A DNA stretch of 64,000 nucleotides from contig JAZOOS010000034.1 in assembly GCA_045655185.1 (NCBI GenBank), forward strand, positions 8,493 through 72,492, written 5' to 3'. Numbering within the stretch: the first letter of the stretch is position 1; each line of letters starts with the position of its first letter. The notes beneath the pieces were generated by a model, which saw nothing but the letters and a program-made list of their open reading frames with translations, searched no databases and was not told the origin of the DNA. Origin of the DNA: Eubacteriales bacterium. Lineage in GTDB: Bacteria > Bacillota > Clostridia > Oscillospirales > CAG-272. Positions 19,847 to 29,382 of the stretch are shown one piece after another. The position numbers were made by a program, and so were the translations under genes.

Positions 19847-21001
19847 TCAGAAGATCTTTTCAAAAAGATCCATGACCTCTTGCTTTTTGGGGGTGCGGGG
19901 ATTGGTGGGGGTGCAACGGTCGTTGATCGCGGCCTCGGCCATATCCTCGATCTTATGCATATATTCATCCTTGGTCAGATTGGGGGCTGCCTCGCGGATA
20001 CAACGGGGGATCTGCATTTGGATACGCAGCTCGTCGATGTAGTTGATCAGCGTTTTTACCGAAGCGATATCGTTATAGCTGCCAACACCGATATAACGCG
20101 CAAGCTTTGCGTATTTATGTACGCAAGGGGAGGGGTTAACGAGCGACATCGTATGGCTCTCGATCCCCGTGTTATAGCTGATGACCGTCGGAAGCAGAAT
20201 GGCGTTTGCCTTTCCGTGGGGGATATGGAACTGGGCGCCCAGCTGATGAGCCATGCCGTGGTTAAGCCCAAGAGATGCGGCGTTAAAGGCCATGCCCGCA
20301 AGGTTTGAGGCGAAGTGCATCTTTTCACGCGGAAGCGTTTCACGCGTCATCTCGTAATTGTACGAGCGATAGAGGTAATCCTTACAGACCTGAGCCGCCT
20401 TTTTGGAATAAACGTCCGAGAAGGCGGTGGCGTTGGTGCTGACGTAAGCCTCGATCGCGTGGGTGAAAACGTCCATGCCCGTATCGGCGGTGATCGAAGC
20501 GGGTACGCTTTTTACCATCTCTACGTCAAGGATCGCCTCCTCGGGCAGAAGCTTTTGATCAATGATCGCGTGCTTGATATTCTTTTCGGCGTCGGTAATG
20601 ACCGCGAAGGAGGTAACCTCGCTTCCCGTTCCGCTCGTGGTGGGAATGGCAATAAAATAGGGGAAGTAATCGGGCACCATCTTCGAAGCGAACTGGCGTA
20701 CGCATTTGGCAAGATCAATGGCAGAACCGCCGCCTACGGTAATAATACAGGGCTCTTTATTTTTGAGAAGGGCGGTAACGCCCGCACCGACGGCTTCGAC
20801 CGTCGGATCGGGGGAAACCTCGGAATATAGGGTATAAGCGATCTCGGCTTTATCCAAATGCTTCGTTACGTGCTTGATCAGCCCGCTTGTGACTACGAAG
20901 GGATCGACGATGATAAAGACCTGCTTGTGTTCAAGTGAAGCAAGGCGAGAAAGCGCGTCTGCGCCGAAATGGATCGAAGTATGAAGATTAAAGCTTTGCA
21001 T
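19847..21001 (-). CDS. iron-containing (group III) alcohol dehydrogenase
   Basis: 384 aa with GGGSAIDLAK and the histidine-rich metal-site region HGMAHQLGAQFHIPHG. Confidence 0.85.
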   Translation of the reverse strand: MQSFNLHTSIHFGADALSRLASLEHKQVFIIVDPFVVTSGLIKHVTKHLDKAEIAYTLYSEVSPDPTVEAVGAGVTALLKNKEPCIITVGGGSAIDLAKCVRQFASKMVPDYFPYFIAIPTTSGTGSEVTSFAVITDAEKNIKHAIIDQKLLPEEAILDVEMVKSVPASITADTGMDVFTHAIEAYVSTNATAFSDVYSKKAAQVCKDYLYRSYNYEMTRETLPREKMHFASNLAGMAFNAASLGLNHGMAHQLGAQFHIPHGKANAILLPTVISYNTGIESHTMSLVNPSPCVHKYAKLARYIGVGSYNDIASVKTLINYIDELRIQMQIPRCIREAAPNLTKDEYMHKIEDMAEAAINDRCTPTNPRTPKKQEVMDLFEKIF

Positions 21002-21139
21002 AGACCCTTCCTTATTTCAAAAATTCGGGAAATATTATTTTATTATAAAGTATACAGGATTTTTATGTTTTAGTCAAGAGAAGAAAAGAGATTTTTAAAA
21101 GGAAAAACGTTTCTATTTGCCTTTTTGTGGCGTGGTTTC

Positions 21140-21282
21140 GTTTCGGTTCGCTTCGTTTTGGGGGAGAAAGGCGCAGATACCGCCGTTGGCGGTATGCGAA
21201 CGTGCATCTTGATGCATTCGCATCAAGACACGTTCTTCGGAAGGGTAGACCAAAAGCAAAAGCACCCCAAGCGGGGTGCTTT
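21140..21282. repeat. 143-bp direct repeat, copy 1 (tRNA-Arg trailer element)
   Basis: Differs from 21351-21493 at 3 positions by hand alignment. Contains three hairpins. Confidence 0.85.
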
Positions 21283-21350
21283 ACGGAACGGCAGAAGGCC
21301 GACACGATATGCGCATAAGCGGCTTTTTCTTTGCGAGTGCAAAGGTATTT

Positions 21351-21493
21351 GTTTCGGTTCGCTTCGCTTTGGAGGAGAAAGGCGCAGATACCGCCGTTGG
21401 CGGTATGCGAACGCGCATCTTGATGCATTCGCATCAAGACACGTTCTTCGGAAGGGTAGACCAAAAGCAAAAGCACCCCAAGCGGGGTGCTTT
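21351..21493. repeat. 143-bp direct repeat, copy 2, directly downstream of tRNA-Arg
   Basis: Offset from copy 1 is exactly 211 bp. Ends in the 19-bp perfect stem CCAAAAGCAAAAGCACCCC-AAGC-GGGGTGCTTTTGCTTTTGG. Confidence 0.85.
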
Positions 21494-21499
21494 TGCTTT

Positions 21500-21576
21500 T
21501 GGCCTGCCCGACACGATTCGAACGTGCGGCCTCAAGAGTCGGAGTCTTGCGCTCTATCCAGCTGGGCTACGGGCAG
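21500..21576 (-). tRNA. tRNA-Arg (anticodon CCG), CCA encoded
   Basis: Manual cloverleaf. Acceptor CTGCCCG/CGGGCAG, anticodon arm CAAGA-CUCCGAC-TCTTG, T arm GCACG-TTCGAAT-CGTGT, discriminator G, then CCA. Total 77 nt. Confidence 0.85.
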
Positions 21577-21605
21577 ATATGGCTTACTTATTCGCAAGCC
21601 TTATT

Positions 21606-21634
21606 ATTGTAGCATATTCTTTTTAAAAAGGCAA
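21606..21634 (-). promoter_or_regulatory. candidate promoter for tRNA-Arg
   Basis: Minus strand reads TTGCCT, 17-nt spacer, TACAAT, about 30 nt upstream of the tRNA. Confidence 0.4.
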
Positions 21635-21660
21635 CCGTTTTTTGATTTTTTTCAAAAAGC

Positions 21661-22488
21661 TTATTCCTTTTCTTCATAGCGCGCTAAATTCCGTAGGATC
21701 GTGTTGCGTCCGCGCCAGGCAAAGGCGCGCTCTTGAAATTCGTCCTTCTTCATATTCTCAACGAGGTCATAGGTCAAATGCGGAATACGTTCTTTACGGA
21801 AAAAGGGAATCGGGGAAAGGCGGCCCTCTTCAATCACCCGTTTGTTATACGGGCAGGCAAGCTGGCAAAGATCACAGCCCCAAACCGTTTTATGCTTTTT
21901 CATCAAAAGAAAGACCTCGTTAGGCAGCTCTCCCTTTTGCTGGGTAAGGGCAGAAAGACATTCCCCCTCACCCGAAAGAGCGCCCGTGGGACACGCCCTT
22001 TTGCAAGCACCGCAATGCAAGCAACCCTTAGGCTCTTGTAAAGAAGGAAGATCGATAGGCTCCAAATCGGTAAAGATCTCCCCCAAAAAGAGGAAAGAGC
22101 CGTATTTTTCGTTAATAAGAAGCCCGCTGTCGCCTACGATCCCAATACCGCAACGCGCGGCGGCGTCCCGCTCGTCGATCGGGGAATGATCCGAAAAGCC
22201 CAAAAAACGGTTTTGGGGGTAGTACGCTTGTAAATAAGCGGTAAGCCTTTCCGAAATCCCCCGCATATATACATGATAATCGCGGGCGGCGGCGTAGCGC
22301 GAAAGATTTTCGGTTTCCCCCGCGTAATAGGGGGCGGCGTAAAGGATCACGGTCTTTGGCTGAAAAGCGGGAAGTCTATCAAAAAGATCCTCCCGAAATA
22401 CACGGCACGCGTGAAGAGGCAGAACACCGAAATATTCAATTTTTTCTTCTTCAAAAAAGGGGGTAAGCCGTTCGATCTTCATAAGCAA
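21661..22488 (-). CDS. QueG-like epoxyqueuosine reductase family 4Fe-4S protein
   Basis: 275 aa with an AAARDYHVYMRGISERL block plus CLHCGACKRACP and CDLCQLACP cluster motifs. Shorter than classical QueG. Confidence 0.6.
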   Translation of the reverse strand: MLMKIERLTPFFEEEKIEYFGVLPLHACRVFREDLFDRLPAFQPKTVILYAAPYYAGETENLSRYAAARDYHVYMRGISERLTAYLQAYYPQNRFLGFSDHSPIDERDAAARCGIGIVGDSGLLINEKYGSFLFLGEIFTDLEPIDLPSLQEPKGCLHCGACKRACPTGALSGEGECLSALTQQKGELPNEVFLLMKKHKTVWGCDLCQLACPYNKRVIEEGRLSPIPFFRKERIPHLTYDLVENMKKDEFQERAFAWRGRNTILRNLARYEEKE

Positions 22489-22594
22489 ATTCTCCTAATG
22501 AAAGTATAACAAAGGAAGCACAAAAAAGCAACCCCCTTTCGGGGCTTCTTCCCCTCGCTTTTTGAAAACTATTTTTCCTTTTTTCTTTCCTCTC

Positions 22595-22623
22595 TTGACA
22601 TTTTCTTATCTTTTTGCTATAAT
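22595..22623 (+). promoter_or_regulatory. consensus sigma-A promoter for tRNA-Pro
   Basis: TTGACA, 17-nt spacer, TATAAT, about 40 nt upstream of the tRNA. Confidence 0.6.
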
Positions 22624-22662
22624 GCAAAGCGCGGCAAGGGAATGCCTGCCGTTCATATAGAA

Positions 22663-22738
22663 CGGGGTGTGGCGCAGTTGGTAGCGCGGGTGGTTTGGGA
22701 CCATCAGGCCGCAGGTTCGAACCCTGTCACTCCGACCA
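22663..22738 (+). tRNA. tRNA-Pro (anticodon UGG), CCA encoded
   Basis: Manual cloverleaf. Acceptor CGGGGTG/CACTCCG, anticodon loop TTTGGGA, T arm GCAGG-TTCGAAC-CCTGT, discriminator A, then CCA. Total 76 nt. Confidence 0.9.
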
Positions 22739-22919
22739 AAAAAAGCAAGAGAGAGGCTCGTCTTCTCTCTTGCTTTTTTGATGGATGTGTCAATTCGAAG
22801 CTGTTTTGCGAAGCAAAATGCAGGTTCGCATTCCCCGCTTGGAGATCGGCAAGCTCTCTTGTCAGGCGAAGAGCGTGGGAATCACGTAGCGCAGCGAAGT
22901 TACCCTGTCACTCCGACCA
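22693..22919 (+). repeat. direct repeat DR1 (tRNA-Pro 3' half plus 181-bp trailer ending in a second copy of the tRNA 3' end)
   Basis: Matches 24469-24694. From CCGCAGG onward there are 4 substitutions and 1 indel by hand alignment. The 17-mer CCCTGTCACTCCGACCA occurs at 22722-22738 and again at 22903-22919. Confidence 0.9.
22743..22780 (+). terminator. rho-independent terminator after tRNA-Pro
   Basis: 12-bp stem AAGCAAGAGAGA / TCTCTCTTGCTT followed by TTTTTG. Confidence 0.65.
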
Positions 22920-22920
22920 G

Positions 22921-22960
22921 AAAAAGACCTATGCTTTGATACAAAGCATAGGTCTTTTTC
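22921..22960. terminator. 18-bp perfect hairpin (bidirectional terminator-like)
   Basis: AAAAAGACCTATGCTTTG-ATAC-CAAAGCATAGGTCTTTTT. Confidence 0.55.
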
Positions 22961-23111
22961 AACGGAATAAATCCCTTGCGAGATTTGTGAATGGCTCTTC
23001 ATGTGTGAAATATGGCTACACCATGTGAAAGGCCTGTGGGTGTTGATGGCTCACGGAACTTCACTTTGTGCGAAAGTGCAAAATTTCACGATTTATACCC
23101 ATTATCTTTAT

Positions 23112-24386
23112 TTACATGGGTTCCTTTTTCTTCTTATTTGATTCTTTGAAAAATCTGGCGAACAACGGGATGCCACACAGCGGGAAGAGCATGGCAATGA
23201 GAAGACCGAGCTTCATTCCGAAACGGTCGGGAGCCAGATTGAGCGTCTGTGCAAGGTCTATAAACGTGGGATTAGTAAGTGCGATGTCGGTGATGATGCC
23301 CACAAGCTGAGGCACGACCGACGCACCGAGGTCACCGCCGGCCGCCATGATAGCATAGATGAAGACTCCGCCCTTAGGGAAGCGTTCGGGCGCAACTATG
23401 AGCATACCCGGCCAGAGCATCGAAGCGCAGAAGCCGCAAAGCGCGCAGGCGATAAGCCCAATGACGGCGAAAGGCGAAATTGCCGCAACAAAGTAGCAGA
23501 CCGCCGAGCCTATTGCGCCGAGAAGCAGTACGCGGCTGATGTTCTTGCCGAACTTAGCGTATCCGCTGCGTCCGAGTCCAAGCATGGCAGAAAACAGTGC
23601 AACTCCGAAGATATCACCGAACACCTTGGGAATGCCGAGCGCCAGTTCAAGGTAGCTCGATGCCCACTGACCCATTGTACATTCGGCGGCACCACTGATA
23701 AATATAGCCGCAAAGCATACCCACAAGATGGGATTTTTGAGATACTGCATAGCTCCGCTAGCCTTTTCGGGTGTTTGCATCTCGGGAATTTCCGCACCTG
23801 CGTAGAGTATAGCGGAAGTCAGCGGAACGAGCGTAAATATTGCGGCGAGCCACTGCCAGTTTTTATGGCCGAAAACAAGCAAGAAGACTGTGGAGACGAT
23901 GACCACACCGACGACGCCCCAAGCGTACATTGAGTGGAGCTTGCTCATTTCATGCTCGGGATCTTTTGCTGGGATAGCGGCGATAACAGGGCTTATCAGC
24001 ACCTCAGCAAGTCCGCTTGATGCCGAGATAATAATAGTCGCGATGACGATTCCAAGATAGACCATACTCGGGAAGATGAATGGCGAGAGCGCATAGATCA
24101 CCATTCCAACGACAGCGATGACCGGAATGAGCTTGACTGTAAGCGGAATATTGAAGCGGTGAGAGAAGAATGAAAAGATGAGGTCGATGGTGAGCTGTGT
24201 CGAGAAATTGATTAAAACAAGCAGACCAAGCAGAGAGAAAGATATGTCGTAAAGGTCTCGGAATGTGAGAAAAAGAAGCGGCGTAAAGTTTGAAACGATC
24301 GACATTGTCATACTCGTCGTATAGCAGGCGTATTTGACGCACGTATATTTTTTGTCCATTGTGTGCTGCCTTTCATTATGTGTCAA
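23112..24386 (-). CDS. MFS transporter
   Basis: 424 aa with about 12 hydrophobic segments. An alternative ATG at 24359 has an AAAGG RBS. GC is lower than the flanks by eye. Confidence 0.8.
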   Translation of the reverse strand: MTHNERQHTMDKKYTCVKYACYTTSMTMSIVSNFTPLLFLTFRDLYDISFSLLGLLVLINFSTQLTIDLIFSFFSHRFNIPLTVKLIPVIAVVGMVIYALSPFIFPSMVYLGIVIATIIISASSGLAEVLISPVIAAIPAKDPEHEMSKLHSMYAWGVVGVVIVSTVFLLVFGHKNWQWLAAIFTLVPLTSAILYAGAEIPEMQTPEKASGAMQYLKNPILWVCFAAIFISGAAECTMGQWASSYLELALGIPKVFGDIFGVALFSAMLGLGRSGYAKFGKNISRVLLLGAIGSAVCYFVAAISPFAVIGLIACALCGFCASMLWPGMLIVAPERFPKGGVFIYAIMAAGGDLGASVVPQLVGIITDIALTNPTFIDLAQTLNLAPDRFGMKLGLLIAMLFPLCGIPLFARFFKESNKKKKEPM

Positions 24387-24468
24387 TACAGATTATACCG
24401 CTTCGTGGCAGATAATTCAAGATGTTATTTGCAAAAGTACGGAAAATGAAGTAAAAAAATGCTTTTGC

Positions 24469-24514
24469 GTTTGGGACGTCGATGCCGCAGGTTCGAACCC
24501 TGTCACTCCGACCA
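24469..24514 (+). pseudogene. partial tRNA-Pro (anticodon loop to CCA), displaced 3' half
   Basis: GTTTGGGAC..CCGCAGGTTCGAACCCTGTCACTCCGACCA. Identical to the tRNA from CCGCAGG to CCA and diverged in the anticodon-stem and variable region. No 5' half is present. Confidence 0.75.
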
Positions 24515-24694
24515 AAAAAGCAAGAGAGAGGTTCGTCTTCTCTCTTGCTTTTTTGATGGATGTGTCAATTCGAAGCTGTTTTGCGAAGCAAAATGCAGGT
24601 TCGCATTCCCCGCTCGGAGATCGACAAGCTCTCTTGTCAGGCGAAGAGCGTGGGAATCACGTAGCACAGCGAAGTTACCCTGTCACTCCGACCA
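24469..24694 (+). repeat. direct repeat DR2
   Basis: Second copy of DR1. The 17-mer CCCTGTCACTCCGACCA occurs at 24498-24514 and 24678-24694. Confidence 0.9.
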
Positions 24695-24725
24695 AATTTG
24701 GCTTTGGGAAGCAATTCCCGAAGCC

Positions 24726-24790
24726 TTTTTCTTTGCTTACTGCGACGCAAATTTTGAGGGCTGACGGTTTGTTTTCGTCAGCCCCTTTGG
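24726..24790 (+). repeat. module-boundary motif M1 (35-nt conserved box plus GC hairpin)
   Basis: TTTTTCTTTGCTTACTGCGACGCAAATTTTGAGGG, then the hairpin GAGGGCTGACG...CGTCAGCCCC. Confidence 0.7.
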
Positions 24791-24827
24791 GTATTCATTT
24801 CTACTCGATAAATTGGAATTTGTTTTA

Positions 24828-25091
24828 TTAAAGGATTTTGGCTTTGCTTGGCTTGTCGGAACAATAAAGAACTGTCAGATTGCTTCCAACAGCAGGGACT
24901 TCTTTACCTGCTCCAATCCATTTTCTCTTAGCGTAGATTTTTCCATCTACAACATATTGCACTTTAATGATATGTGGAAAGGTTGCTCGGTCCAAAGCAC
25001 CCATTCGTACAGGTTTGGTATTCACCTTTAACCACCATTGCTTTGCAACGGATAGTACAGTTCCCATTGTTTCTTTATCCATACATTTCAC
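24828..25091 (-). CDS. hypothetical protein
   Basis: 87-aa ORF with no recognised motif. Lower GC by eye. Confidence 0.4.
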   Translation of the reverse strand: MKCMDKETMGTVLSVAKQWWLKVNTKPVRMGALDRATFPHIIKVQYVVDGKIYAKRKWIGAGKEVPAVGSNLTVLYCSDKPSKAKIL

Positions 25092-25319
25092 CCCTTCGTC
25101 AAATTCTTATTCATCGGTGAGTTTATTATATCATATTTTTATGAATAATTCAATCGTTTGCTTGACATTCACCCGTATTTATGGTATAATAATCACGTCG
25201 AATATTCGTCACCGGAGGCTGTGTACCGTAGTACCGTAATGCCGGATTAGGTGTCCAAGTGAGCTTGGGTTATTGCATTCGCAAGACCTTAGCTCTATTT
25301 TTATTTTCGGAGGTGTTTT

Positions 25320-25874
25320 ATGAAAAATATGAAGGTTACTCTTGTTCCGCTTACGGCAGACGACCGTGAGCAATTTATCCTTGACAATCAATGGGCGTTC
25401 AAGTACGGTGCGATGATGGAGTTCGGTGAGCGTGATGACCATATCGACGATGACGGTGAGATCATCTCTCGCACAACTATTGAAAAATCCATCGACAATC
25501 CCAAAAGCAAAACCTACCGCATTATGCTTGAAGGTGAGAAGGTCGGCGGTTTGATACTTACGATTGACAACGAAACGCATCATAATCACTTGGATATTCT
25601 CTTTGTACTGCCAGAAGCACACAGTAAAGGCATTGGCTACGGCGCATGGCAGGAGGTCGAGGCTCTGCATCCCGAAACCAAGGTATGGGAGACCTGCACT
25701 CCCTATTTTGAAAAGCGCAATATCCATTTTTACGTAAACAAGTGCGGCTTTCAAATCGACCAATTTTGGTGTGAATATTTCCAGCCGGATCATCCGATGC
25801 CCGATGAAGACGAGCGTGATCCCGATGAAGGCCCTGACGAAATGTTCCGTTTTATCAAGGTGATGAAGCCGTAA
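25320..25874 (+). CDS. GNAT family N-acetyltransferase
   Basis: 184 aa with a GNAT-like motif A region (VLPEAHSKGIGYGAW) and an acidic C-terminal region. A GGAGG sits upstream. Confidence 0.8.
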   Translation: MKNMKVTLVPLTADDREQFILDNQWAFKYGAMMEFGERDDHIDDDGEIISRTTIEKSIDNPKSKTYRIMLEGEKVGGLILTIDNETHHNHLDILFVLPEAHSKGIGYGAWQEVEALHPETKVWETCTPYFEKRNIHFYVNKCGFQIDQFWCEYFQPDHPMPDEDERDPDEGPDEMFRFIKVMKP

Positions 25875-25880
25875 AGCTGT

Positions 25881-25941
25881 TTTCTTTGTTTCCACCGACG
25901 CAATTTTTGAGGGGTGACAGATTGTTTTCGGTCCCCCCTCT
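25881..25941 (+). repeat. module-boundary motif M2
   Basis: GTTTTCTTTGTTTCCACCGACGCAATTTTTGAGGG matches M1 at 29 of 35 positions by hand, followed by an imperfect GC hairpin. Lies between the convergent GNAT and LysR genes. Confidence 0.65.
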
Positions 25942-25948
25942 GTGCATA

Positions 25949-26815
25949 TCACCGATATTTTATATATTCCAAAAGCTTTTTGACCGCAATAGATGCTCTT
26001 TCTTGACTTCGCAATGCAATGCCGATCTTTCGGAAGGCAGACACATCAAGCTCCTTTGCCACAATTTTATACGGTATCCTACGCAGTATCAGCTCGGGAA
26101 GGATAGCAATTCCAAGACCGCCCTCTACCATTGACATCACCGCATAGTCATCCCACGTTGTAAAATGCACGTTTGGCGTAATGCCGTTTCTCTCAAAAAT
26201 TTCGGATATCTCCGCTTTCGCACCCTTTTCAAGAAGCATAAAGGGATAGTCACACAATGCCTTTACGGGAAATTTATCCTTGTCGGCAAGTGGGTGATCC
26301 TCGGGGAGAACCACCAAGAGCTTATCTTCCTCCAAGAATATCGTTTCAAATTCATCAACCGTCGGCAATTGGAGAAAACCAAGATCGACTCGCCCCGTTC
26401 TGATCCATTCCTCAATCTCTGTGTAATCACCGAGCAACAGCTCGTAATCGATATTGGGATAGTCCTTTTGAAATTCCCGGATGATGTTGGGAAGCCAATG
26501 CGTTGCTACGCTTGAAAACGTGCCAATACGTATAAGCCCCGATTGCAAACCGTTGATCTCGTCGATCTGCTCCTGCAAGCGTTCAAATTCTCGGCAAACG
26601 CTCTGCGCGATAGGGAGTATCTTCATTCCGTCCGAGGTCAGCTTTACTCCTGTACGGTTGCGCTCCAAAAGTATAATATTCCACTCTTTTTCCAAGTCGT
26701 TTATCATACGGCTCACCGCCGATTGCGAATAGTTGAGTATTTCCGCTGCTTTGGTGAAGCTGCCATATTCTACGGTCTTGATAAACGCCATATATTTTTG
26801 CACGTTGGTGTCCAT
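25949..26815 (-). CDS. LysR family transcriptional regulator
   Basis: N-terminal HTH (FIKTVEYGSFTKAAEILNYSQSAVSRMINDLE) and a LysR substrate-binding domain. Divergent from the EamA transporter gene. Confidence 0.9.
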   Translation of the reverse strand: MDTNVQKYMAFIKTVEYGSFTKAAEILNYSQSAVSRMINDLEKEWNIILLERNRTGVKLTSDGMKILPIAQSVCREFERLQEQIDEINGLQSGLIRIGTFSSVATHWLPNIIREFQKDYPNIDYELLLGDYTEIEEWIRTGRVDLGFLQLPTVDEFETIFLEEDKLLVVLPEDHPLADKDKFPVKALCDYPFMLLEKGAKAEISEIFERNGITPNVHFTTWDDYAVMSMVEGGLGIAILPELILRRIPYKIVAKELDVSAFRKIGIALRSQERASIAVKKLLEYIKYR

Positions 26816-26921
26816 TTTTAATCCCTCGTTTCATGCGTTTTTGTAATACTGAACATGAGATATATTTGCTTGTGTAATTCTTGATAACATGATATACTAT
26901 CATCATTGAATTGTCAAGAGG

Positions 26922-27785
26922 TTGAAAATGAAAGCATCGTATTTGAAATATATCTTTGCGCTGGTGCTGTTTGGCTCAAACGGCATCGTGGCAAGTATGA
27001 TCCATTTGAGCAGTTACGAAATCGTGCTTCTGCGAACTTTGATCGGAAGCCTTTTGCTCATAGCTATTTTCTTTATAGCAAGGGAGAAACTGACCTTTTA
27101 CAAGCATAAAGCACAAAGTATTTTTCTTGCCGTGTCAGGATTTGCGTTGGGGACGGGTTGGATATTCTTGTACGAGGCATACGACGAGATCGGTGTCAGC
27201 TTGGCTTCGCTCGCTTATTACTGCGGTCCGATTATCGTGATGATGCTCTCACCGTTCCTGTTCGGAGAAAAGCTCACAAGGATCAAAATGTGCAGTTTTC
27301 TTGTAATCCTTGTCGGCATCTTTCTCGTCAACGGAACGGCGTTTGAGAATGGTGTCAGCGTATGGGGCCTTGCCTGCGGTCTGCTCTCTGCGGTCTGCTA
27401 CTCGTTGATGGTAATGTTTAATAAAAAGGCGAAGGACATCACGGGGCTTGAAAACTCCATGCTACAGATTTTTATGGCGTTTATCACGGTTGCTGTATTC
27501 TCTGTCATCAAACAGGGCTACCGGATGAAAATTGACACAGAGAGTATTATTCCGATCCTTGTATTAGGACTTCTGAATACGGGCATCGGCTGTTATTTCT
27601 ATTTTTCGTCTATCGGGAAGTTGCCCGTGCAGACGGTTGCGATATGCGGATATCTCGAACCGCTGTCAGCGGTCATTTTCTCGGTCATTTTCTTGAAAGA
27701 AACAATGCTGCCGATACAGATCATCGGCGCGGTACTTATTATCGGCGGTGCGATGCTTGGGGAATATAGAAAAAAGCAAACATAA
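26922..27785 (+). CDS. EamA/DMT family transporter
   Basis: 287 aa with 10 hydrophobic segments in two EamA-like halves. Confidence 0.85.
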   Translation: MKMKASYLKYIFALVLFGSNGIVASMIHLSSYEIVLLRTLIGSLLLIAIFFIAREKLTFYKHKAQSIFLAVSGFALGTGWIFLYEAYDEIGVSLASLAYYCGPIIVMMLSPFLFGEKLTRIKMCSFLVILVGIFLVNGTAFENGVSVWGLACGLLSAVCYSLMVMFNKKAKDITGLENSMLQIFMAFITVAVFSVIKQGYRMKIDTESIIPILVLGLLNTGIGCYFYFSSIGKLPVQTVAICGYLEPLSAVIFSVIFLKETMLPIQIIGAVLIIGGAMLGEYRKKQT

Positions 27786-27819
27786 GGTGAGGGCTGACCG
27801 CTATCAGCCCTCGTTCCGC

Positions 27820-27880
27820 TTTTCTTTGCTTACCGCACCGCAAAGTTTGAGGGGCGACCACGAATGGTCGCCCCTTTTTC
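27820..27880 (+). repeat. module-boundary motif M3
   Basis: CTTTTCTTTGCTTACCGCACCGCAAAGTTTGAGGG matches M1 at 30 of 35 positions, followed by GGGGCGACC-ACGAAT-GGTCGCCCC and a T-run. A further hairpin, GAGGGCTGA...TCAGCCCTC, precedes it at 27788-27812. Confidence 0.7.
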
Positions 27881-27882
27881 GT

Positions 27883-27965
27883 TTACGCATTCGCCGGCCA
27901 AAGATCGGCAAGCTTGCCAGGTGCAGGAATCGCGAAGCACAGCACAGTCGCCCTGTCACGTCGCC
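27883..27965 (+). repeat. degenerate third copy of the distal part of the DR trailer, including a decayed tRNA-Pro 3' end
   Basis: TTACGCATTCGCC..AGATCGGCAAGCT..GGAATCGCGAAGCACAGC..CCCTGTCACGTCGCC aligns with GGTTCGCATTCCCC..AGATCGGCAAGCT..GGAATCACGTAGCGCAGC..CCCTGTCACTCCGACC. Confidence 0.5.
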
Positions 27966-27996
27966 TATCCCTTACCGGTCTTTTTTAATTGCGTTT

Positions 27997-29382
27997 TTAT
28001 TTTATTTTCTTCCTTTTGAAGATCCGGCTTCTGAAAAGAATGACGTTCATAACGGCAAAGAAAAGAGCGAATATGATAAGCGTCAGAACCGGCTTTGTGG
28101 GGGCGAGCGTAGCGAGAAACATCATGGGGAAGCCAAAAACAATGGCCGGGAAATTTTGATACACCATATTATCCGATGCGGGCGTTTTAAAGTCGCTATC
28201 GATCTCTCGAAGAAGAATAATACCCGTGCTTGCCGTTCCCGTCAGCATCCCGTACATGGTAAGGAACTGCTCCTCCGCATAATCGGGGAAGAGGGTCTTG
28301 GCGATCAGGCGATTGTAAACGTATGTGATGATGGCGCCAACCACCCCAAGAATCAGAATAACGCCCCAATAGTTTTCAAGAATATCAAGACGGATGGCCG
28401 CAATTCCCGCAACGACCATAATATCAAAGAAGAAATTGCTGGTGCGCGTCATAAGGAAATTGTTTGTGTACTTCTTTTGGATGATCCCTTTCTTGCGAAG
28501 GAAATTCAAAAGAACCTTGATCAACGTGGCCGTCAAAACACCGATTAAGAAATTGAAGCCGTAAATCACCGATTTCATTCCGGGCAAAAGCGATCCGAGC
28601 GCAAACATCACAAGGTATGCAGCCACGTAAGCGACAACGATCAAGGCGATCTGAACGGTCATTTTGTCAATGCTTTCCTGCATGGGAATTTCATTGGCAG
28701 AATCAATTTGATCGGTGTGAAGGCTTCCGTCCGAACGGTTGGATAGGACAAGCTTTCCGCGTCTTTTCATAATGTTCAAATGAATGACACCGACGATGCT
28801 TGCGGATAAGAATCCAAGGGCGGCAATCGTAAGACCAAAGCTTTTTCCACCCACAAATCCGTACTCGTTTTCATAGATCGTGCCGTAGTTAAGCGCCTGC
28901 CCGGTGCCTTGCCCGTAGCCAAACGGCAAAAGAACGCCGGCGGCGGTGAAAAAGTCTTGTATAACCAAGGCGGTGATCATCGTTATCAAAAGGCCGACTA
29001 TGCCTTGTATCAAATAAGTGGAAACCGTTGTTACGCCCGTGTTAAAGATTTCCTTTGTCCGTTGTTTGGTCAGCTTTCCGCCCGTCGTTTTGAAAGCGGA
29101 AGCAATAAAGCCAAGCGCCAACGTATGATACGTAATAATTTCAAGATTTCCCATACCGTTTCCGCCAAAAACGGCCGTCTCAAACATCACATCACCGGTA
29201 ATGGATTTATATACGTCAGAAATGATCAAGAGGATCACACCGCCAAGCACCGAGGTCGGTATCAAAGAATTTTGCAAAAGCGGAATGCTCTTTTTTAAGA
29301 CGTTCCCGACCAAGAGGCTGCCCAGCAAAACGCCAAAGAGCAGGATCGATCCCCATACACTATAATCCCAAAAATTTTCCAT
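27997..29382 (-). CDS. GltS-like sodium/glutamate symporter family protein
   Basis: 461-aa polytopic protein whose layout resembles GltS, including GYGQGTGQA. A GGAGGGG RBS is present. Confidence 0.5.
   Translation of the reverse strand: MENFWDYSVWGSILLFGVLLGSLLVGNVLKKSIPLLQNSLIPTSVLGGVILLIISDVYKSITGDVMFETAVFGGNGMGNLEIITYHTLALGFIASAFKTTGGKLTKQRTKEIFNTGVTTVSTYLIQGIVGLLITMITALVIQDFFTAAGVLLPFGYGQGTGQALNYGTIYENEYGFVGGKSFGLTIAALGFLSASIVGVIHLNIMKRRGKLVLSNRSDGSLHTDQIDSANEIPMQESIDKMTVQIALIVVAYVAAYLVMFALGSLLPGMKSVIYGFNFLIGVLTATLIKVLLNFLRKKGIIQKKYTNNFLMTRTSNFFFDIMVVAGIAAIRLDILENYWGVILILGVVGAIITYVYNRLIAKTLFPDYAEEQFLTMYGMLTGTASTGIILLREIDSDFKTPASDNMVYQNFPAIVFGFPMMFLATLAPTKPVLTLIIFALFFAVMNVILFRSRIFKRKKIK

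Follow-up and report, generated by a model that had tools for sequence, protein, structure and literature searches.

We describe a 5.3-kb island beside a tRNA-Pro gene of an uncultured ruminant-gut bacterium (Eubacteriales bacterium; GTDB lineage Bacteria; Bacillota; Clostridia; Oscillospirales; CAG-272). The window analyzed is a stretch of 64,000 nucleotides (nt) of contig JAZOOS010000034.1 (assembly GCA_045655185.1; positions 8,493 to 72,492, forward strand), and all coordinates below count from its first letter unless another locus is named. An intact tRNA-Pro(tgg) gene at 22663-22738 on the + strand (ARAGORN; Rfam tRNA, 62.7 bits) is followed by an MFS transporter gene, a small gene for an 87-aa protein, a GNAT acetyltransferase gene, and a divergent LysR regulator/EamA exporter pair, with copies of the 3′ end of the tRNA among and beyond them. 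These cargo calls, first made from the letters alone in a first-pass annotation, were borne out by Pfam, which places the 87-aa protein in DUF3592. The island (22739-27965) is probably a decayed tandem accretion array of integrative-element remnants at tRNA-Pro, of the kind called cis-mobilizable elements (CIMEs). Such structures are already known, and the island is of an ordinary genomic-island type.

The last 17 nt of the tRNA gene (CCCTGTCACTCCGACCA; copy 1, 22722-22738, the host allele) occur exactly at 22722, 22903, 24498, and 24678, where 0.09 matches were expected by chance; none of 100 dinucleotide-preserving shuffles reached four. A fifth copy (27951-27965) differs at 4 of 17 positions and was absent from a three-mismatch search because it carries four mismatches. 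It terminates a collinear match of about 85 nt to the right part of a 181-nt repeat, unit B, with a local alignment score (40; shuffle mean, 16.9; maximum, 29) as high as which none of 1,000 shuffles and none of 283 other window tiles came, so the homology is real. The five copies listed in the first-pass annotation thus exist, but they are neither equivalent nor independent. The segments 22693-22919 and 24469-24694 are two copies of one block of about 227 nt, which stand on either side of the MFS gene and are made of the tRNA 3′ half and unit B (98% identity between B copies), with two 17-mers per block. The 17-mers at 22903, 24678, and 27951 each terminate a diverged pseudo-tRNA-Pro 3′ half, recognized by alignment to the real tRNA and, in unit B, exact only over the last 17 nt.

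Unit B copy 1 (22739-22919, + strand; repeat D1, hairpins I18/I4) opens with the terminator hairpin of the tRNA (22739-22779), continues with a partial copy of the tRNA end in inverted orientation (22780-22792), and closes with the pseudo-tRNA-Pro 3′ half that ends in 22903-22919. Copy 2 (24514-24694, + strand; repeat D1) ends in the fourth 17-mer (24678-24694). Immediately to its left lies a 46-nt partial tRNA-Pro (24469-24514, + strand; repeat D3), which runs from the anticodon loop to CCA and contains the third 17-mer. Its allele (GACGTCGATG; host, GACCATCAGG) differs from that of the host in the anticodon stem and variable loop and matches the complete tRNA-Pro on a separate contig, L001, at 100% identity; by its sequence, this fragment is a putative attR-type scar with a foreign allele. 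The right end of the island (27886-27965, + strand; repeats D6/D7) combines the diverged right part of B with the decayed 17-mer and is, judged in the same way, the outermost attR-type scar and the island boundary. Unit B was also considered as a structured RNA or DNA and rejected (single-strand folding z = −0.45). The 48-nt core of B (22824-22871) is 10 to 20 times commoner than the host in some metagenome runs, with up to about 800× depth in run X9.

Between the duplicated blocks lies module X (22920-24468, − strand; Pfam MFS_1; hairpin I9), which holds a perfect terminator hairpin (22920-22960), a Gut-1-like motif (22960-23036, + strand), and the MFS gene (23112-24386, − strand) with a promoter (TTGAAT-17-TATAAT) near 24400-24430. 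The nearest MFS homolog is 93% identical and is found on three contigs (L220, L221, and L222); window positions 22909-24442 are shared with these contigs at 93.9% DNA identity, and the match stops there. Contig L220 carries, in order, Fic, type I restriction-modification, and AbiH genes, a 46-nt tRNA-Pro fragment that begins at the anticodon loop, a terminator, a multihairpin unit, a 17-mer, and module X, followed by about 230 bp, a second multihairpin unit, another 17-mer, a 209-aa gene, TnpV, and genes of conjugative-element type. As in the window, X stands immediately 3′ of one copy of the tRNA-Pro end, with another copy beyond it and the 46-nt anticodon-loop fragment upstream. The three 17-mers of L220 are exact copies of its own tRNA-Pro end (TCTCGCCACTCGGACCA), not of the window allele. 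The same cargo beside host-specific tRNA-end copies in two genomes is the pattern that site-specific integration produces, and these alignments show module X to be a discrete mobile unit that has moved between genomes.

Other observations concern the noncoding parts of X and of its counterpart. The Gut-1-like motif, which is convergent with the MFS gene, is a subthreshold match to Gut-1 RNA (RF01706), with 40.6 bits (E = 2e-5) against a gathering score of 50; its first 45 nt or so (22952-22999) reach 10 to 70 times host abundance in metagenomes and recur in L220 and L023. The two units of about 125 nt that precede tRNA-end copies in L220 (9623-9743 and 11441-11568, − strand) are predicted to form very stable four-way junctions (z = −7.1 and −10.9), in which the closing stem pairs inverted and direct tRNA-end copies and leaves three hairpins and a free ...ACCA tail. 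Two of the three hairpins differ in sequence while keeping their pairing. Unit B of the window is not comparably structured.

To the right of the last exact 17-mer, a hairpin (24695-24726), the first copy of a repeat termed D4 (24727-24803), and an 18-bp motif termed M (24804-24821; CTCGATAAATTGGAATTT) follow one another on the + strand (repeats D4/D5, alignment A2, M scan). D4 is about 60 to 95 nt long and recurs as copy 2 (25880-25947, + strand; repeats D4/D5, alignment A2) and, behind a terminator hairpin, as copy 3 (from 27820, within 27786-27880, + strand; repeat D4, alignment A2). Motif M led to a contig (L066) that carries tRNA-Pro, D4-M, a small open reading frame (ORF), a promoter block, a second D4, and a tyrosine recombinase gene transcribed toward the tRNA. 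A metagenome search with this recombinase gave an integrase family of 80 loci (55 to 94% identity) from related gut Clostridia. In 51 of the 80, a tRNA-Pro (tgg or cgg) lies downstream of the integrase on the opposite strand, at a distance of 97 bp to about 7 kb; the sole other integrase-proximal tRNA is a tRNA-Leu, upstream of the gene in one locus.

The link between this family and the window runs through the flank of the integrase gene. In L141, the 97 bp between the tRNA end and the integrase stop codon consist of a hairpin and D4, and the window sequence formed by the 17-mer at 24678-24694, the hairpin, and D4 copy 1 is collinear with that interval (alignment A2 with L141, L066, and L001). 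The whole of 24695-24821 is likewise collinear with the stretch from the tRNA-Pro 3′ end to the integrase stop in integrase-bearing relatives. D4 stands immediately 3′ of the stop codon in six loci (L140-L144 and L146) and in a degenerate form in more distant family members, and the end of D4 copy 2 resembles the ...CCCTCTGTGCGTTAT junction with that codon. By position and alignment, D4 is the conserved 3′ flank of the integrase gene, which means that the window retains three copies of integrase-flanking sequence and no integrase. The derivation of the window from integrase-bearing elements is based on this flank homology, not on an integrase pseudogene. The first-pass annotation had seen no integrase, transposase, or relaxase, and Pfam agreed, with no integrase, recombinase, transposase, or relaxase domain in the 55 nonoverlapping ORFs of at least 100 aa in the window. 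A site-specific recombinase of its own, as carried by integrase-bearing tRNA islands, integrative and mobilizable elements (IMEs), or prophages, is thus missing from the 64 kb. Neither the right-end signature nor M occurs in the viral-contig collection, which thus lends no support to a prophage origin.

The integrase-bearing loci also resemble the window in their tRNA fragments. In 26 of them, a partial 5′ half of the host tRNA lies 150 to 260 bp upstream of the complete tRNA-Pro, and in L141, L143, L153, and L166 this fragment ends within the anticodon loop (TT[C/T]GGGA|). The 46-nt fragment of the window starts at the anticodon loop where those 5′ fragments end; the two kinds are complementary around a 7-nt overlap, as expected of a tyrosine recombinase. 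In L001, a host-type 5′ fragment with its own promoter precedes the complete tRNA-Pro (seen by eye; the automated search did not detect the fragment). These arrangements suggest that elements of the family arrive with a complete tRNA-Pro and its promoter and leave attR scars like the 46-nt fragment of the window. Accretion is displayed directly in L143, where the integrase, D4, the hairpin, and a short tRNA-end remnant are separated from tRNA-Pro by 3 kb of other DNA. For the TTGACCAC repeats near tRNA-Pro, a role as arm sites of the integrase was weighed and rejected, since they are more simply the −35 region of the tRNA promoter, duplicated with the 5′ half.

Close relatives of the host are rare. 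The flanks of the island hold core chromosome genes (FeoB, Fe-ADH, a QueG-like protein, FtsZ, MutS, MurC, and pyruvate kinase; Pfam), and close homologs of the QueG-like protein number just three, each on a short contig (89, 86, and 79% identity). The closest (L133, 89%) matches the window from QueG through the tRNA-Pro promoter (22594-22623 in the window) and nt 1 to 54 of the tRNA; beyond nt 54, foreign DNA (116 bp) leads to another complete tRNA-Pro and then to unrelated sequence, and the contig ends 560 bp later. The contig of the 79% homolog (L135) ends inside the tRNA at the point where L133 diverges. Assemblies break at this locus because tRNA ends are repeated. As the insertion in L133 breaks the same tRNA, tRNA-Pro is a recombination hotspot in the relatives. 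The host itself is a rare Clostridia-like bacterium of the ruminant or animal gut; most of the stretch is covered in just two runs, where depth is about 5×. Exact-protein look-ups for the flanking and cargo ORFs returned nothing on record.

A tRNA-Arg(ccg) gene (21500-21576, − strand; ARAGORN) is present to the left of tRNA-Pro, with a 211-bp tandem duplication downstream of it (21137-21509; 97% identical). Its terminator hairpin stem extends into pairing with the 3′ acceptor end of the tRNA itself, and the same extended terminator pairing is found for tRNA-Pro (arms 24501-24529/24539-24567).

The cargo on the right is mosaic in turn: one of its parts is a small cassette of wide distribution, and repeats of other kinds (M and D4) form the boundaries. 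The 87-aa DUF3592-like ORF (24828-25091, − strand; Pfam, E = 1.8e-5) occupies a variable cassette slot, and on metagenome contigs the slot flanks are kept and the ORF is replaced. A conserved promoter block read from the sequence (25096-25159, − strand; −35 TTGAAT, −10 TATAAT) drives the slot ORF, and a degenerate M-like site (25102-25119) lies in the 5′ untranslated region of that ORF. Between M and the promoter block, 16 loci carry 16 different genes, all 16 in the ON orientation. Homologs of the block (about 60 nt) were found in more than 12 loci and lie beside D4 and the integrase in L140, L144, and L066. The loci with a different single gene each are L001, L066, L067, L078, L031, L111, L119, L113, L023, L122, L099, L121, L082, and L125; slot genes include those for small membrane proteins, ChrA-like and EamA proteins, methyltransferases, and glyoxalase-fold and P-loop kinase-like proteins, and each stops just short of M. 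At the right of the cargo, the divergent LysR (25949-26815, − strand) and EamA (DMT) exporter (26922-27785, + strand) genes received generic family calls only (Pfam, NCBIfam) and are present at host-level depth. The plasmid collection gave only distant gene-level matches, among them a syntenic LysR-DMT pair of about 67% identity on a Monoglobus plasmid record. Sequence searches of NCBIfam and PDB yielded no specific function for the GNAT, MFS, or 87-aa protein.

The GNAT unit (25161-25874, + strand; Pfam) comprises a promoter (25161-25190), a leader (25200-25319), and the gene for a 184-aa acetyltransferase (25320-25874). The segment 24404-25947, which spans D4, the 87-aa slot, GNAT, and the next D4, reaches 55 to 400× depth in cattle, goat, and other gut metagenomes, against 0 to 7× for the host backbone. 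Across 25880-25970, depth falls from about 200 to 400× to about 25× and then to 0, placing the right edge of the abundant GNAT unit at D4 copy 2. GNAT has more than 7,800 homologs, mostly on contigs of 0.7 to 0.95 kb, and identity does not drop below 81% in the top 120; the gene also occurs alone in unrelated contexts (L002-L004), for example, between FTHFS and infB in one Clostridia metagenome-assembled genome (MAG). The cassette is thus about 10 to 100 times as abundant as the host and unusually widespread in ruminant gut bacteria, and its abundance makes it a strong candidate for a mobile function under selection, in detoxification or resistance.

The leader of about 120 nt travels with GNAT wherever the gene is found, and in L031 (3986-4112 of that contig) it precedes a MatE efflux gene. 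RNAalifold folds it into a three-stem domain and a terminator, with an alternative antiterminator hairpin. Over nine sequences, 97% of cells pair, versus 28 to 42% when the partners are slid; five pairs change on both sides, and the covariation score was equaled in none of 500 shuffles. The compensatory changes fall in two hairpins, the loops CGTA and TGAG are invariant, and two stems are uninformative because they are invariant. Rfam gave no family match for the leader at E ≤ 1 over 20500-28500. Tentatively, the predicted fold makes the leader a candidate riboswitch or attenuator for the acetyltransferase and, in one locus, for the efflux pump.

Motif M (CTCGAYAAATTGGAATTT) is extended in some loci to a full 24-bp palindrome (CTCGAC-AAATTGGAATTT-GTCGAG). 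A genome scan found it in at least 120 stretches (loci L013-L132). Among the matches listed are gut MAGs of Akkermansia and Verrucomicrobiales as well as of numerous Clostridia families; flanking DNA is unrelated from one locus to the next, and many matches lie at contig ends. M occurs as short inverted pairs (150 to 380 bp apart), as direct arrays, and around single ordinary genes, and one Akkermansia segment at M was found in both orientations. Tyrosine recombinases adjoin M in only a few loci, L016 and L128 among them, no recurrent transposase was found near it within the 8-kb loci, no target-site duplications were seen at it, and a literature search for the string gave only unrelated primers. 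M as the end of an autonomous insertion sequence was rejected for now, as there is no transposase nearby and inverted M pairs enclose ordinary genes of diverse kinds; a simple invertible switch is disfavored because all 16 slot genes are ON. Nor does the island have the makings of an integron or of a cluster of attC sites lacking integron-integrases (CALIN): no intI is encoded in the window, the genes lie on both strands, and neither M (an 18-bp site) nor D4 (an integrase 3′ flank) is an attC-like imperfect hairpin, attC having been judged by eye.

Taken together, the comparative data support the suggestion of the first-pass annotation that the locus carries serial att-site scars at one tRNA: module X in L220, the foreign partial tRNA, the tRNA-Pro integrase family, the three D4 copies, and the insertion in L133 all point to serial site-specific integration at tRNA-Pro. 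Direct repeats of the 3′ end of the target gene bound modules that hold no integrase, excisionase, or transfer genes and descend, by their flanks, from integrase-bearing elements, as in CIMEs. As part of the same explanation, the enzymes that made the junctions were probably tyrosine integrases that the locus no longer encodes.

With each integration into the tRNA gene, an attR-type scar in the form of a partial tRNA copy would have come to mark the distal end of the inserted DNA, and newer elements, inserting beside the tRNA, would have displaced older ones outward. Later deletions would have removed the genes for integrase and transfer functions, so that cargo genes and short arm fragments (unit B and D4) are what is left. 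In the order of events that we infer, 27886-27965 would be the oldest and outermost scar. The second layer (24695-27885) would be the integrase-proximal end of an L141/L066-type element, its integrase having given way to, or disappeared among, small cassettes with promoters of their own (the 87-aa ORF and GNAT) and the LysR-EamA pair. In a third layer, the MFS module X would have come in as a discrete unit with tRNA-end copies on both sides. The L141/L066 integrase family, rather than another tRNA-Pro-specific one, would presumably have made every junction.

Several points weigh against this history. The scars are of at least two kinds: integrases of the L141/L066 type leave 5′-half duplications with anticodon-loop junctions, unlike the scars formed by B-type sequence and the 17-mer. 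More than one type of recombinase may have acted, since the latter scars resemble a core of the 3′-end type and the 46-nt scar has an anticodon-loop junction. The 98% identity of the B copies is better explained by homologous recombination or gene conversion than by two independent integrations, and may stem from gene conversion or a Campbell-type homologous event. Unit B was not found among 132 related loci, and a scan of the metagenome collection for its overrepresented core came back empty. An empty tRNA-Pro site could not be demonstrated, the close relatives being rare and on short contigs, none of which reaches the right flank. A search for excision or deletion junctions, a check proposed at first pass, yielded none among the contigs of six runs, in two of which the host is present at about 5×, too shallow to exclude them; the apparent joints all traced to the tRNA-Pro loci of other organisms or to cassette variants, and the host was absent altogether from the bovine runs. 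All comparative loci are MAG or metagenome contigs, in which assembly errors in repeat regions are possible.

Composition gives little help. The island had been described as visibly lower in GC, and a dip exists (0.464, versus 0.515 for the window; MFS module, 0.484; right part, 0.443), but it is modest and has no sharp edges, GC in the 5 kb next to it on the right being 0.472. Codon usage, likewise proposed as a check, does deviate in the four larger cargo genes, but weakly (codon-distance z, 1.3 to 2.6; z of GC at third codon positions, −0.5 to −1.6). Only the 87-aa ORF is extreme, and three genes to the right of the island are also low in GC. With such small z-scores and a low-GC right flank, the compositional argument for foreign origin is weak.

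These points bear on three other accounts of the locus. Local duplication or homologous recombination could have produced it with no integrase ever involved, the 227-nt block having been duplicated, or the MFS gene inserted by a Campbell-type crossover, and the pseudo-tRNAs being relics of old tandem tRNA-Pro genes. The B copies (98% identical over 181 nt, plus 46 nt of tRNA) offer enough homology for RecA, the duplication downstream of tRNA-Arg is a comparable one that carries no cargo, the window has no integrase, and the compositional signal is weak. It is nevertheless highly improbable that this is the whole story: module X has allele-matched tRNA-end repeats in a second, unrelated genome, the partial tRNA, foreign in allele, begins precisely at the anticodon loop, where the integrase-bearing loci have their junction, and the 3′ flank of the integrase gene is present three times. 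Improbable, too, is an origin of 24695-27885 mainly by a separate cassette exchange at M and/or D4, integron-like or dif-module-like, with its proximity to the tRNA end incidental. D4 copies do bound three gene modules; M, conserved in both Clostridia and Akkermansia despite unrelated flanks, delimits single genes of diverse kinds, and one and the same promoter-equipped slot is filled by 16 different genes; and L066 and L140 have a cassette between duplicated D4 copies where L141 is "empty." No recombinase or transposase is consistently linked to M, though, the window shows neither target-site duplications nor an intact second M, and D4 is more simply the 3′ flank of an integrase gene. Such exchange would in any case supplement tRNA integration, not supplant it.

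The third account takes the array to be made of functional cis-mobilizable elements, excised or transferred singly or together by a matching integrase encoded elsewhere in the genome or on an incoming element. The four 17-mers are perfect while the neighboring sequence has diverged, which could reflect selection on a core site; X moved between genomes recently (94% identity); and mobilization of CIMEs through accretion with an integrative and conjugative element (ICE) has been described (PMC5704250). Set against this are a decayed outermost site (4 of 17 positions changed), the lack of a cognate integrase in the 64-kb window, and the failure to see excision junctions, at a coverage too low to exclude them; present-day function is on balance doubtful. 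For the decayed array that we favor, excision by an integrase acting in trans may still be possible, as for CIMEs, or the array may by now be fixed. Rather unlikely, in our estimate, is the broader idea that M and the promoter block define an undescribed cassette-exchange system common to gut Clostridia and Akkermansia, docking single genes into an expression slot often beside tRNA-Pro elements, with the GNAT cassette as its most successful passenger, under a new riboswitch class that also precedes MatE and may sense a compound that both proteins detoxify.

Tyrosine integrases that target tRNA genes use two sublocations, the anticodon loop and the T-loop/3′ end, a scheme reported by Williams (2002, Nucleic Acids Research). 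Like the classical islands of this type, the window and its relatives have junctions in the anticodon loop (7-nt overlap) and near the T-arm/3′ end, direct repeats of the tRNA end, and, in the relatives, an integrase beside the tRNA and transcribed toward it. They differ in that the array has no integrase and in that the relatives carry a complete tRNA-Pro and leave the host 5′ half behind, not merely restoring the 3′ end.

An origin by integration, decay, and further integration has been proposed for tandem elements of the ICESt1/ICESt3 family of Streptococcus thermophilus (PMC5704250). The CIMEs of that system share with the array attL/attR repeats of the 3′ end of the target gene, the loss of integration and transfer genes, and a tandem arrangement beside the target. 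Here, the target is tRNA-Pro and not fda, no resident ICE or IME is present in the array or the 64-kb window, one att scar is a 46-nt fragment of anticodon-loop type, and the sites are putative. The ssrA islands of Dehalococcoides (PMC3146451) are also arranged in tandem downstream of a small-RNA gene, with direct repeats of about 20 bp of its 3′ end between islands and extra conserved sequence upstream of each repeat; some lack an integration module and were proposed to be cis-mobilizable (PMC3146451). Those islands use a CcrB-like serine recombinase and a tmRNA target, and many keep their integrase, whereas the window points to a tyrosine family and a tRNA. For the M-bounded cassettes only, the dif modules of Acinetobacter plasmids (PMC6449649, PMC13141974) and the mobile insertion cassettes of the Bacillus cereus group (PMC6199540) are relevant, being small single-gene modules that lack a recombinase of their own, have short inverted recognition sites at their ends, and occur in many contexts; the 9-6-9 geometry of the full M palindrome is like that of a tyrosine-recombinase core site. 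Unlike them, M is unrelated to the dif consensus, is chromosomal and spread over two phyla, has the promoter block outside the inverted sites, and was matched to no cognate Xer or transposase and to no target-site duplications in the loci seen.

More unusual than the island itself are the M-bounded cassettes, the very abundant GNAT unit, and its candidate riboswitch leader, and the cross-phylum site M may offer a handle on a recombination or transposition system in gut bacteria. For annotation, the lesson is that integrase-less stretches beside tRNAs are not to be taken for core genome. In an uncultured ruminant-gut Clostridium, the island documents how a tRNA gene collects small export and modification genes and retains them after the elements that carried them have decayed, and it ties such remnants to a concrete family of tRNA-Pro-specific integrases whose elements appear to carry a tRNA-Pro of their own.

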